A DNA stretch of 32,947 nucleotides, taken from a virus. Lineage: Duplodnaviria; Caudoviricetes. The notes under the pieces are model-generated. The model saw only the letters and a program-made list of their open reading frames with translations. It searched no databases and was not told the DNA's origin. The position numbers were made by a program, and so were the translations under genes. The DNA lies in IMG/VR virus record IMGVR_UViG_3300018050_000777, positions 1 to 32,947 of that record; one strand, given 5' to 3'. Within the stretch, counting starts at the first letter, position 1. Every line of letters starts with the position of its first letter. Below are positions 24,886-31,870 of this stretch, in pieces.

Positions 24886-25405
24886 GATGTGCGTAGAGGA
24901 GATTCTCGTAGCGTTCGCCTGTGGCCATCTTGCGTCGAGCAAGGGCATAGGCATAACCTACTGAGGTGAGTGGCTTCCATGGGGCCTTGTCATAGTACGA
25001 GCATACGACTGTGGGCTCATATGGACTGATGACGTGCTTCAGGTCAGTCATGTGGCCTATCTTGGCCAGCACGCTTGGGCCCAGTGAGTAGCACGCATAC
25101 AGCAAGGCTGGGCTTGGTGGTGCCCTGTGATGTACCCTGAAGCGTGAGACTATCTTCATCAGGAACGTGGTTGCATACTCACGTGCTATCTGTGGGTCAT
25201 ATGCACTGTGATAAGGATGCACAGCCAGACCATCACGTCGCCTCATGTCGCTGATGTCATCCCATGCACTCTGGTGTATCTGGAATGCACCAATGGCTGG
25301 ACCATCAGGATGATTGATGTCGCCCTTGGCCTTGGGGTCATCGCCTGACTCAATGAGTGCGAGTGCATGAGCGAGTGCCCGCTGGTCTGTGTATACTGTG
25401 TGCAT
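24842..25405 (-). CDS. Lysozyme-like / lytic transglycosylase-fold muramidase, about 187 aa
   Basis: 'ALIESGDDPKAKGD...AIGAFQIH..AW.D' catalytic Glu-Ser and GxxQ motifs; likely start MHTVYT. Confidence 0.75.
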   Translation of the reverse strand: MHTVYTDQRALAHALALIESGDDPKAKGDINHPDGPAIGAFQIHQSAWDDISDMRRRDGLAVHPYHSAYDPQIAREYATTFLMKIVSRFRVHHRAPPSPALLYACYSLGPSVLAKIGHMTDLKHVISPYEPTVVCSYYDKAPWKPLTSVGYAYALARRKMATGERYENLLYAHHESLRSTGLPLLWL

Positions 25406-25445
25406 GGGCTTGCCCTTACCCGAATGAGATACGATGTTGGGGCTC

Positions 25446-25913
25446 ATGGCAAACAAACGCACGTCGGGCAAGAGACAGAGAACAACCAAGAAGCAGGCCA
25501 ACCCGCTGAAGCGGAAATATGGCGAGAGCGGTGTCGAGGCGTTCATCGCCCACCAGAAAAGAATCAGTGAGGAACAAGTCAACAGTTTGATGATGCTCGA
25601 ACCACGTGAGTGGTGTGATTACGCATGCGTTGGTGTGGCCGAGGACAACATGGGCTCACTACGTTGTGTGTATGACCTCAACATACTGGAGCATGCGTAT
25701 GCACTCATGTATGCGTATGAGGAATTCGGATACGAGAGTATCGACAAACTGGTTACACAGGCGACGCCTGAGCAATTCGACATGGCTCAAGAGTGGGTAT
25801 CATACAACACGCTCAGGGCATGTCCTCACATGGGACCTAATTCCCCTCTGTTCGTACGCTCTCACGACCCCAAAAAGTGGCAGACGGCCCAAGAATGGGA
25901 CATGGGCTGGTAA
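25446..25913 (+). CDS. Conserved phage hypothetical protein, 155 aa
   Basis: 'VYD...A.EWVSYNTLRA.PHMG...P' pattern; start MANKR. Confidence 0.7.
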   Translation: MANKRTSGKRQRTTKKQANPLKRKYGESGVEAFIAHQKRISEEQVNSLMMLEPREWCDYACVGVAEDNMGSLRCVYDLNILEHAYALMYAYEEFGYESIDKLVTQATPEQFDMAQEWVSYNTLRACPHMGPNSPLFVRSHDPKKWQTAQEWDMGW

Positions 25914-25928
25914 ATTGATTTCGTTGTA

Positions 25929-25941
25929 CATCAACGACTTA
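25929..25941 (+). promoter_or_regulatory. IHF-like binding site
   Basis: CATCAACGACTTA versus consensus WATCAANNNNTTR (1 mismatch), just upstream of the promoter. Confidence 0.4.
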
Positions 25942-25962
25942 CAACTATCTATCTACGGACGC

Positions 25963-25990
25963 TTGACGCAGGACTACAAAGCGTCATGTT
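25963..25990 (+). promoter_or_regulatory. Early promoter candidate
   Basis: TTGACG-N16-CATGTT directly upstream of the RNA cluster. Confidence 0.5.
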
Positions 25991-25995
25991 GATGG

Positions 25996-26028
25996 CATGG
26001 TGATTAACGCACCATGTTCTTTAGCAAT
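25996..26028 (+). promoter_or_regulatory. boxB-like hairpin plus rrn-type boxA antitermination element
   Basis: Hairpin CATGGTG-ATTAACG-CACCATG, then TGTTCTTTAGCAAT (E. coli rrn boxA TGCTCTTTAACA). Confidence 0.55.
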
Positions 26029-26032
26029 CTAC

Positions 26033-26107
26033 GGGTGAGTCTAGCGACTATGTAAGGCATTAGAGGCCACGACACATACAGGGGTGCAATTCCCCAATCA
26101 TCCACCA
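26033..26107 (+). ncRNA. tRNA-like RNA resembling an isolated tmRNA tRNA-like domain
   Basis: Acceptor GGGTGA/TCATCC with G3:U70, A73 and CCA; T-arm-like GGGG-TGCAATT-CCCC; no D-stem or anticodon arm. Confidence 0.55.
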
Positions 26108-26113
26108 ATTTAT

Positions 26114-26189
26114 GGTGTCCATCGTCTAATGGTTAAGACATCGCCCTGTGGCGGCGAGGATACGGGTTCGATTCCCGTTGGTCACCCCA
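26114..26189 (+). tRNA. tRNA-His (GTG)
   Basis: Cloverleaf with G-1:C73, D stem GTCT/AGAC, anticodon stem TCGCC/GGCGA around CTGTGGC, T arm ACGGG-TTCGATT-CCCGT, and encoded CCA; one U-U mismatch in the acceptor stem. Confidence 0.93.
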
Positions 26190-26194
26190 TTTAT

Positions 26195-26268
26195 GGGTCA
26201 CACTTGCAGACAGGGCAGTTCTCCAACCACAGAGCACTAGAACGCTCGCCCTCTGGCATTACAGACCC
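26195..26268 (+). ncRNA. Long irregular hairpin RNA candidate
   Basis: Nested pairs GGGTC/GACCC, TGC/GCA, AGGGC/GCCCT, GTTCT/AGAAC; preceded by the same TTTAT spacer as tRNA-His. Confidence 0.4.
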
Positions 26269-26312
26269 TCCCTTCGCTAGATACATGACAGGCCTAGCCA
26301 GTCCTAGCAAAT

Positions 26313-26380
26313 GAGGTTCCCCGACGTGTATGGTAGCACCACGGGACGCAAGTCGGTTAAGCATTGGCCGAGCCTCACCA
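26313..26380 (+). ncRNA. tRNA-like RNA with 7-bp acceptor stem and ACCA end
   Basis: GAGGTTC/GAGCCTC then ACCA; inner stems CCGAC/GTCGG and TGGT/ACCA; no canonical anticodon or TPsiC loop. Confidence 0.45.
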
Positions 26381-26402
26381 AATTTCCACCCAAACACACA
26401 AC

Positions 26403-26501
26403 ATGAACAAACAACAAATCAGCATCCTCTGGGTCGTCGCCCTCATCATCGACACGGCTACTCTCGTAGCCCTCTGCGTCGGTATCGGCCTCATCTGGTA
26501 A
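26403..26501 (+). CDS. Small membrane protein, 32 aa (MNKQQISILWVVALIIDTATLVALCVGIGLIW)
   Basis: AC-rich leader and a single hydrophobic segment; below track cutoff. Confidence 0.6.
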   Translation: MNKQQISILWVVALIIDTATLVALCVGIGLIW

Positions 26502-26549
26502 TGCTAAGCCCCTTCGGGGGCCCACTTTATAATCCACCACACACATAAC

Positions 26550-26849
26550 ATGAAATACAGCATCAAATACACACCCATCAACACGACCAAGGGAACTGAC
26601 ATCTCCTTCGAGCAGGTTGAGAACCTCTACATAGGCAATGGCAACCAATGCCGTTGCGGTTGCGGGGGCGAATACTACGAGGCGAACGACGAGTTCAACG
26701 CCAGCATCATCAAGGATGCCCTCAAGAAGATGGCCAGCGGTAAATACGCAGTCGAGTCTATCGACGACTACATCTTCGAAATCGTCATCCGCAAGGAACG
26801 CACCTACAGGGGCAAGAACAAGGTCATGACCCTCTATCTCAAGAAGTAA
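26550..26849 (+). CDS. Hypothetical protein with CRCGCGG motif, 99 aa
   Basis: AC-rich leader; phage-like codon usage. Confidence 0.7.
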   Translation: MKYSIKYTPINTTKGTDISFEQVENLYIGNGNQCRCGCGGEYYEANDEFNASIIKDALKKMASGKYAVESIDDYIFEIVIRKERTYRGKNKVMTLYLKK

Positions 26850-26854
26850 TCCAC

Positions 26855-27055
26855 ATGCGTAAATACAAGTACATCAAGGCATCGGCCATCAAGGCCTTGG
26901 CCAAACAAACCAACGGACGCCGTGTCTCTGAGCAGTTCCTGCTCATCCTCGACGCCTTCGTGGGCAACAAGGTCGCCCTCTGCTCCCAAGCCCACAATGG
27001 TGGTCGCAAGACCATGAAGGGTGACATGGCAGTCATCATGGGCCTCAGCCGCTAA
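26855..27055 (+). CDS. Histone-fold protein (prokaryotic type), 66 aa
   Basis: 'IKASAIKALAK..GRRVSEQ...GRKTMK' matches the HMf-type 'RVS' L1 and 'GRKT' L2 motifs. Confidence 0.7.
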   Translation: MRKYKYIKASAIKALAKQTNGRRVSEQFLLILDAFVGNKVALCSQAHNGGRKTMKGDMAVIMGLSR

Positions 27056-31761: not shown

Positions 31762-31769
31762 CCAACTTT

Positions 31770-31841
31770 GGCCTTATCGTTCAACGGATAGGACAGGCGT
31801 TTCCTAAACGCTTAATCTAGGTTCGATTCCTAGTAGGGCCA
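31770..31841 (+). tRNA. tRNA-Arg (CCT), CCA not encoded
   Basis: GGCCTTA/TAGGGCC acceptor, GTTC/GGAC D stem, GGCGT-TTCCTAA-ACGCT anticodon arm and CTAGG-TTCGATT-CCTAG T arm. Confidence 0.93.
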
Positions 31842-31870
31842 AAACCTTTCCACCCAGCACACACACATAC

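Follow-up and report, generated by a model that had tools for sequence, protein, structure and literature searches.

A conserved tRNA-like RNA gene of uncultured phages: a predicted alanine-accepting, non-decoding mimic that may act on ribosome rescue

Introduction

Transfer RNA genes carried by phages are commonly accounted for as a means of codon supply or as replacements for tRNAs that host defences have destroyed, and the chargeable half of tRNA(Ala) on its own fits neither of these explanations. In bacteria, the alanine identity set consists of A73, G2-C71, G3.U70 and G4-C69 (PMC9976931, in excerpt), and the tRNA-like domain (TLD) of tmRNA has a reduced D-loop without a stem (PMC3968760, in excerpt). 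A phage version of the latter is the TLD-only tmRNA of mycobacteriophage DS6A (JN698994: 28478-28560; Mao et al. 2009, via excerpts of PMC4131195 and PMC11915505); a DS6A-like molecule is reported to inhibit tmRNA strongly, perhaps by titration of SmpB, and to do so ‘whether or not chargeable’ (PMC4131195, in excerpt). Message-less tmRNAs are also described from organelles, namely jakobid and oomycete mitochondria (RF02544) and the plastids of Mallomonadaceae (~65-bp genes), where they co-occur with SmpB and may still help stalled ribosomes (PMC11915505, in excerpt).

Within the literature excerpts available, DS6A provides the sole comparable phage RNA in print, a single case reported as a tmRNA inhibitor, and no paper describing the family presented here was found among the texts returned by a full-text literature search. 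Here, a second and structurally different lineage is described, conserved across a group of uncultured phages and with an invariant alanine mark; it is read, tentatively, as a tRNA mimic that does not decode, is probably alanylated and may influence ribosome rescue.

Genomic setting

The window, i.e. the whole stretch of DNA analysed, is an entire IMG/VR record of 32,947 bases (68% complete by estimate), with genes for SU10-type capsid, adaptor and portal proteins and the large terminase in its minus-strand half (Pfam, PHROGs) and genes for recombination and replication proteins at its plus-strand end. The element sits between the capsid/terminase and replication blocks, in a gene-free stretch 3' of an open reading frame (ORF) at 25434-25913(+) that also contains a tRNA-His gene and further structured RNAs (Table 1). 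A second canonical tRNA gene, tRNA-Arg(CCU) at 31769-31842(+), stands alone among the replication genes (ARAGORN, Rfam).

Both standard finders overlook the element: ARAGORN on the window and Rfam at the gathering score report the tRNA-His and tRNA-Arg genes only. Comparison with tmRNA and tRNA covariance models, the check put forward in an earlier note on this DNA, likewise returned nothing for the window copy at E <= 10 (Rfam on 25880-26420), the only matches of this permissive search being one of the T arm to a tymovirus tRNA-like model and a partial permuted-tmRNA match running into tRNA-His (14.6 bits, E 0.82). Taken by itself, the sequence has an ordinary folding energy (-19.8 kcal/mol, z = -0.90), matched by 36 of 200 shuffles.

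Upstream of the element, the leader at 25963-26022(+) combines an invariant TTGAC box with a 7-bp hairpin that lies downstream of it and precedes TTCTTT (seven leaders aligned), with the hairpin stem exchanged for complementary GUAGUC/GACUAC in two related loci, L009 and L010 (L numbers denote related viral loci throughout). A sigma-70 scan found no promoter on the element's strand at the leader; termination of the upstream ORF, attenuation and phage-specific promoter activity are all conceivable roles for it.

Table 1. Coordinates of the tRNA-like element, its parts and its immediate neighbours in the window
Feature	Position	Strand	Basis or pairing
Conserved leader hairpin CAUGGUG-AUUAACG-CACCAUG, then UUCUUU; 10 nt 5' of element	25996..26022	+	Seven leaders aligned
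Whole tRNA-like RNA gene, type A, 75 nt	26033..26107	+	R1 91.3 bits (by construction); homologues in related phages
Acceptor stem, 5' strand, positions 1-6, including G3	26033..26038	+	Pairs with 26098-26103
Mini D-hairpin, stem GUC/GAC, loop UAGC	26039..26048	+	RNAalifold; 26039-26041 with 26046-26048
Arm at anticodon position: helix 2 around cap	26049..26078	+	26049-26052 with 26075-26078, plus 26053:26074 in window copy
Inner hairpin GGC-AUUAGAG-GCC, loop variable	26056..26068	+	By eye
Conserved ACGACA, 3' side of cap	26069..26074	+	7/7 type A
T arm, stem GGGG/CCCC, loop UGCAAUU	26081..26095	+	26081-26084 with 26092-26095
Acceptor stem, 3' strand, including U70	26098..26103	+	Pairing
Discriminator A73 (26104) and encoded CCA (26105-26107)	26104..26107	+	A73 in 14/14 family members
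Canonical tRNA-His(GUG), 7 nt 3' of element, presumed same transcript	26115..26189	+	ARAGORN; Rfam tRNA 59.8 bits

Distribution among related phages

Seven related viral loci were obtained with the flanking 159-aa protein as query, and a homologue of the element lies directly downstream of it in six, being absent from L009. A core-pattern scan of metagenome contigs yielded eight matches, two of them due to chance and six true; the latter include the record of the window itself and contribute two new distinct sequences. The only match to the core pattern in bacterial genomes, in a Synergistaceae metagenome-assembled genome, lacks a surrounding acceptor stem and was rejected as chance. A model (R1) built from seven distinct close sequences and run on the best 80 of 107 loci related by terminase recovers further, more distant forms. 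The family comprises 14 distinct sequences, sorted by eye into four types: type A, to which the window copy belongs (75-78 nt, seven distinct sequences); type B (70-71 nt, three); type C (74 nt, one); and type D (77 nt, three).

The flanking gene occurs in 34 of the same best 80 of 107 terminase loci, 32 of them with at least 900 bases downstream. Within these 32 loci covering the slot, 12 contain the element and the other 20 carry ordinary tRNAs (Pro, Arg, Met, Cys), with no R1 match above tRNA level; the element is retained where the identity of the flanking protein drops to 47-86%. A blastn search of 25400-26900 against 50,697 phage records returned one match, confined to tRNA-His, and loose acceptor plus T-arm scans gave mostly false positives in coding DNA and no extra subtype. 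A pattern of CGACAC plus T arm matched 36 viral loci, where only the known type B/C contigs and one new copy (L126) exceed 30 bits with R1; the remaining loci are ordinary tRNAs or tmRNA 3' ends and were set aside. Two metatranscriptome runs gave one contig each (26582-26760 and 26440-26592), none on the element, matches which are contigs and so uninformative on absence, ends or level; two further runs labelled RNA-Seq are probably DNA, four runs having been examined out of 24.

Secondary structure and covariation

Covariation among homologues, which the earlier note had named as a check, is found: across seven distinct close relatives the fold has 17 pairs that are 99.2% paired, seven with compensatory changes. 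When three subtypes are taken together (11 sequences), pairing in the acceptor and T stems amounts to 96.7%, a value reached by 0 of 500 shuffles. Kinship alone can beat shuffles without structure, a caveat that applies to the seven double-changing pairs (reached by 1 of 500 shuffles) and to the covariation score (0.434 against 0.137 for shuffles, reached by 0 of 500). Chance is nevertheless unlikely given the slid controls, at most 58.6% paired, and the number of independent double changes, and the element is, judged on these sequence comparisons, almost certainly a genuine RNA gene.

The acceptor stem, 6 bp in the window copy, is the best-supported helix, with 100% of cells paired in the seven sequences; pairs 1-3 (G-C, G-C, G:U) are invariant, whereas 3-4 of the seven show two-sided replacements at 4:69, 5:68 and 6:67. 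The earlier note had correctly read G1-C72, G2-C71 and G3:U70 (26033-26035 with 26101-26103), A73 and the CCA, the T-arm-like hairpin GGGG-TGCAATT-CCCC, and the mismatches at the junction of acceptor and T stems (G7.A66 and A49.A65, tRNA numbering). Its ‘unpaired D region’ (26040-26048), by contrast, is paired: G7-U8-C9 joins G14-A15-C16 in a covarying mini D-hairpin of three pairs, kept in 7/7 distinct close relatives (100% paired). Compensatory changes affect two of these three pairs, one switching from G-C to A-U and another appearing as U-A, C-G, A-U or U-G, and an A-G is invariant in the mini D-loop of type A. Helix 2 has four pairs (96.4% paired), the first of which is U-A, C-G or A-U, and the T arm has four (100% paired), one of which switches from G-C to C-G.

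The T stem measures 4-5 bp across the family and its loop 7 nt, reading UGCAAUU in the window type and UUCGAUU in other subtypes; in the window T-loop U54, C56 and A58 are retained, whereas position 55 is a G. In tRNA, the elbow contact joins G18/G19 with positions 55/56. Here, a D-loop AG accompanies the T-loop UGCAA in 8/8 sequences and GG accompanies UUCGA in 6/6, a co-variation that points to a tRNA-like elbow contact, and the RNA very probably folds into the tRNA L-shape, as far as aligned sequences can tell. The same UGCAAYU loop with G55 occurs, together with A-G-rich D-loops, in tRNA-Cys(GCA) genes of three more distant relatives (L094 1134-1208, L101 1465-1538 and L078 393-467, all on the minus strand), which makes it a recurrent trait of these phages.

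The arm at the anticodon position

The proposal that the anticodon arm has been replaced holds, since no anticodon loop is conserved, and the irregular helix described for the window is present as TATGT/ACATA (26049-26053 with 26074-26078) and GGC/GCC (26056-26058 with 26066-26068). The inner hairpin has 3-5 bp in relatives (GGC/GCC, GGCC/GGCC, UGGUU/AACCA), pairs that were identified by eye and not formally counted, the alignment being out of register there. The cap loops vary between 4 and 10 nt, differ between relatives and have no anticodon in common; they give unrelated triplets or none, which makes decoding very unlikely. The 3' side of the cap is fixed, with ACGACA invariant in 7/7 type A sequences and CGACAC in 11/11 sequences of types A-C.

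Alanine identity

Alanine identity without a message domain, as claimed for the window copy from its sequence, extends to the family: G1-C72, G2-C71, G3:U70 and A73 are unchanged in 14/14 distinct sequences, and the window RNA is only 75 nt long. The 3' ends read ACCA in nine sequences, AUCA in one and ACCU in four, so that CCA is encoded in 9/14. The G:U pair could become G-C or A-U harmlessly were shape alone under selection, yet it never varies, which argues for selection on charging, and alanylation by the host alanyl-tRNA synthetase is accordingly predicted as likely.

Likeness to tmRNA

All family scores fall below the gathering score of 47 bits for Rfam tmRNA (RF00023). The DS6A TLD-only RNA, used as a control, scores 43.2 bits end-to-end with the tmRNA D-loop motif aligned, and end-to-end matches were also obtained for type B copies of L038 (39.0 bits) and L040 (32.7 bits) and for the type C copy of L037 (38.5 bits); among type A copies, the L010-type reaches 24.9 bits and L025 13.0 bits, and the window copy, three other type A variants, L035 and L044 match neither the tmRNA nor the tRNA model at E <= 10. 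Low tmRNA scores are unspecific and reflect mostly the acceptor and T arm, since 20.2 bits are also given to a relative's non-canonical tRNA-Val.

Individual tmRNA motifs give a similar picture. The GGAC linker that precedes the T stem in the Rfam tmRNA consensus is found in 0/14 sequences, CGACA(C) lying 4-5 nt upstream of the linker position in 11/11 sequences of types A-C, and the UUCGAC 5' motif of the consensus is absent from the family. A CGAC before helix 2, on which the earlier note had drawn, is present in only 2/7 type A sequences, a third reading UGAC. An mRNA-like domain (resume codon, tag frame, pseudoknots) is absent, the RNA amounting to 75 nt in all, and pairing of the element's interior to 130 nt upstream or 600 nt downstream stays within the range of 15 shuffles each in five phages.

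With UUCGAC and GGAC absent, a D-stem present and scores below 47 bits, the family fails tmRNA membership. The suggestion of a TLD mimic consequently survives in part: the DS6A precedent and the sister subtypes at 32.7-39.0 bits favour it, whereas the window copy itself has no tmRNA match, possesses a D-stem and lacks the motifs. In its sequence features, both present and missing, the RNA is similar to a message-less tmRNA, yet is not a member of that family.

Proposed action on ribosome rescue

Under the reading preferred here, the RNA would be excised together with the neighbouring tRNAs by RNase P and 3' trimming, charged with alanine by the host alanyl-tRNA synthetase and bound by EF-Tu and SmpB; on stalled ribosomes it would then imitate tmRNA without supplying a message, and would either compete with the host's own tmRNA or bring about rescue in which no degradation tag is added. 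An SmpB gene was found in 0/5 near-complete related phage records, so that any SmpB involved would be the host's. The steps from EF-Tu and SmpB binding to an effect on trans-translation are put forward tentatively.

Several observations weigh against the rescue reading: the window copy and five others (three type A, L035, L044) have no tmRNA match, the D-stem covaries, UUCGAC and GGAC are missing, the type A T-loop carries G55, the D-stem and extra arm may fill the space that SmpB occupies on tmRNA, and R1 gives no match to the DS6A RNA. The strictness of G3:U70 is moreover left unexplained, given that DS6A-like inhibition is independent of chargeability.

A broader version, somewhat more doubtful, is that the family represents a widespread, undescribed phage class of alanine-charged, anticodon-less mimics that would not derive from tmRNA and would seize stalled ribosomes, with the ACGACA arm as a handle for a partner. 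Tag-less rescue or jamming of host trans-translation would follow, and a dedicated protein partner would sit on the ACGACA arm.

Alternative functions

The element lies 4-8 nt from its neighbours, a spacing typical of a tRNA gene, and these neighbours vary between phages (His, Ala x2, Pro, Tyr, Met, Val, Lys, Phe). A tRNA-His gene stands beside the mimic in the window and L006, tRNA-Ala(UGC) and tRNA-Ala(GGC) genes do so in L004, L005, L008 and L025, and a tRNA-Pro or tRNA-Tyr gene lies upstream of it in L010 and L018.

The swapping of adjacent tRNA cargo among close relatives is what a contest over tRNAs would produce, and the RNA might thus be a decoy or sponge that occupies some host factor specific for the acceptor/elbow half of tRNA(Ala) or for the ends of tRNAs in general; a tRNA-directed defence toxin and a processing or modifying enzyme are candidates, the effect being to shield tRNAs or blunt the defence. 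The elbow and acceptor are indeed the conserved parts, and ACGACA could be a putative protein-binding site. However, the best-known tRNA-directed defences cleave anticodon loops, which this RNA does not have, neither defence nor counter-defence genes were recognised next to the element, and no particular target is indicated; such a role is considered unlikely.

Rather less probable is a role as processing punctuation, in which the fold would only mark RNase P and 3'-trimming cuts, in the manner of t-elements and mascRNA-type modules (tRNA-like cutting signals), and the released RNA would have no role of its own. This would suit the position of the element at or near the head of a tRNA/ncRNA cluster, right after the leader hairpin. 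The neighbours, however, are tRNAs with processing signals of their own and differ between phages, making a cutting signal for one fixed neighbour unlikely, and cutting needs no invariant G3:U70, A73, encoded CCA or ACGACA arm.

Strict alanine identity combined with a lost anticodon would also befit an alanine donor outside decoding, which would supply a transferase that depends on alanyl-tRNA (for cell-wall bridges or lipid aminoacylation, or one encoded by the phage) with no competition at the ribosome; several phages keep two canonical tRNA-Ala genes adjacent, so the element is no substitute for these in decoding. Against this, no Fem-type, aminoacyl-lipid or L/F-transferase domain was detected among 35 ORFs scanned with Pfam and 34 with PHROGs, in a record only 68% complete with many ORFs lacking annotation. 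We know of no phage precedent for an alanine donor of this kind, and the idea is regarded as improbable.

An unusual decoding tRNA, e.g. a suppressor with its anticodon in the inner hairpin loop, is most improbable: some loops look anticodon-like by eye, with U33 and a purine at 37 (window AUUAGAG; L006 GUUCAAA, whose UCA would read UGA), but the triplets are unrelated (UAG, UGA, UCA, CAA, UAA) or missing (L008, ACCCA), the stem below the loop has only 3-5 bp atop an internal loop, and with alanine identity most such triplets would mistranslate.

Type D and the pseudogene question

The type D genes (L044-L046; 77 nt) are of alanine type, occupy the same first slot and have UAGUCAGGCACGACAC in common with the family, and they present a loop CAUGCAA on a 9-bp bulged stem abutting the T stem. 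ARAGORN calls one of the three as tRNA-Ala(UGC), and the Rfam tRNA model does not call the L044 copy, the only copy searched; for comparison, R1 scores the canonical tRNA-Ala genes of relatives at 23-31 bits. A canonical tRNA at this slot in relatives had been named beforehand as the observation that would tell against the mimic, and type D, the nearest case, is not canonical. The features of type D hint that the family may have arisen from a tRNA-Ala gene of a phage.

That ancestry, suggested by an alanine-type gene carrying UAGUCAGGCACGACAC at the same slot, and the mismatches at the acceptor/T junction of the window copy would accord with a decaying, functionless tRNA-Ala pseudogene, a caveat already raised in the earlier note. 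Compensatory changes in all four helices contradict it, as do the tertiary co-variation and the retention of the gene beside a flanking protein only 47-86% identical, and the supposedly mismatched G7 actually pairs with C16; on the aligned copies, the pseudogene reading is close to refuted and its probability very small.

Other structured RNAs of the phage group

Directly 3' of tRNA-His, a second conserved structured RNA at window positions 26195-26268(+) has 19 pairs, 11 with compensatory changes (RNAalifold, five relatives), e.g. GGGUC/GACCC becoming GGAACC/GGUUCC, and no Rfam match at E <= 10. A third conserved element at 26313-26376(+), also with no Rfam match, contains the motif GGUUCCCCGA...GGGACGCAAG closed by GAGG/CCUC; it is found in L035 and L004 and twice in L009 (4681-4752 and 4885-4950), the locus that lacks the alanine mimic.

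Acceptor and T stems in perfect form characterise tRNA-shaped genes of L040/L041, L035 and L044 that ARAGORN does not call, one specifying a 68-nt RNA (GUGGGUA...GCCCAC-U-CCA) with no obvious D arm and others being Val-like or Cys-like; the phage group seems rich in non-canonical tRNA-like genes. Four AT-rich viral contigs (L124, L135, L139 and L141, with identical 321-base loci) carry an RNA of ~110 nt, recognised by eye, with the alanine-type acceptor GGGGAUA/UAUCUCC (G3:U70, A73), AAGUAG after the acceptor and CGACAC right before the T stem. It has no R1 score and may be a longer cousin of the alanine-mimic family.

Significance

If the RNA is charged and active at stalled ribosomes, phages would manipulate rescue far more commonly than has been assumed. 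As a compact and testable system, the family could in addition help to tell apart the contributions of alanylation, SmpB binding and tagging, and, with ARAGORN and Rfam overlooking such genes, the tRNA-like cargo of phages is undercounted.

Comparison with known systems

Canonical tRNA-Ala and the window RNA have in common the identity set, a layout of four arms, probably the elbow contacts, the encoded CCA and their placement within tRNA clusters; unlike tRNA-Ala, the element has no 5-bp stem topped by a 7-nt loop in which U33 and an alanine anticodon occur, its D arm is 3 bp starting at position 7, and it has almost no variable loop. The T4 tRNA cluster yields RNAC and RNAD (‘species 1 and 2’), stable non-tRNA RNAs that are processed with the tRNAs, but these are longer (about 120-140 nt) and are not known to be defined by alanine identity elements. 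Plant-virus tRNA-like structures (TLSs) are likewise aminoacylatable viral mimics of tRNA, but they form the 3' ends of RNA genomes, accept valine and have a pseudoknotted acceptor; the T arm of the phage RNA, GGGGUGCAAYUCCCC, matches that of the tymovirus TLS model (Tymo_tRNA-like, RF00233) at 17.8 bits (E 0.25), below the 40-bit threshold and confined to the T arm.

Organellar message-less tmRNAs have in common with the element a tRNA-like domain only, the lack of a tag frame and their conservation; they differ in being organellar and often encoded by permuted two-piece genes (PMC11915505, in excerpt), and the Rfam mt-tmRNA model gives no match to the window element at E <= 10. The DS6A RNA retains the GG..UCGAC D-loop motif and a stemless D-loop, whereas the window RNA has its covarying mini D-stem and, unlike DS6A, an ACGACA arm, a UGCAA T-loop and no tmRNA match; R1 does not detect the DS6A RNA, and common descent of the two is not shown. 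Both are nevertheless phage-encoded RNAs of 75-83 nt with G3:U70 and A73 in the acceptor, a T arm and no tag frame, and both place a short capped helix at the point where helix 2 exits in tmRNA.
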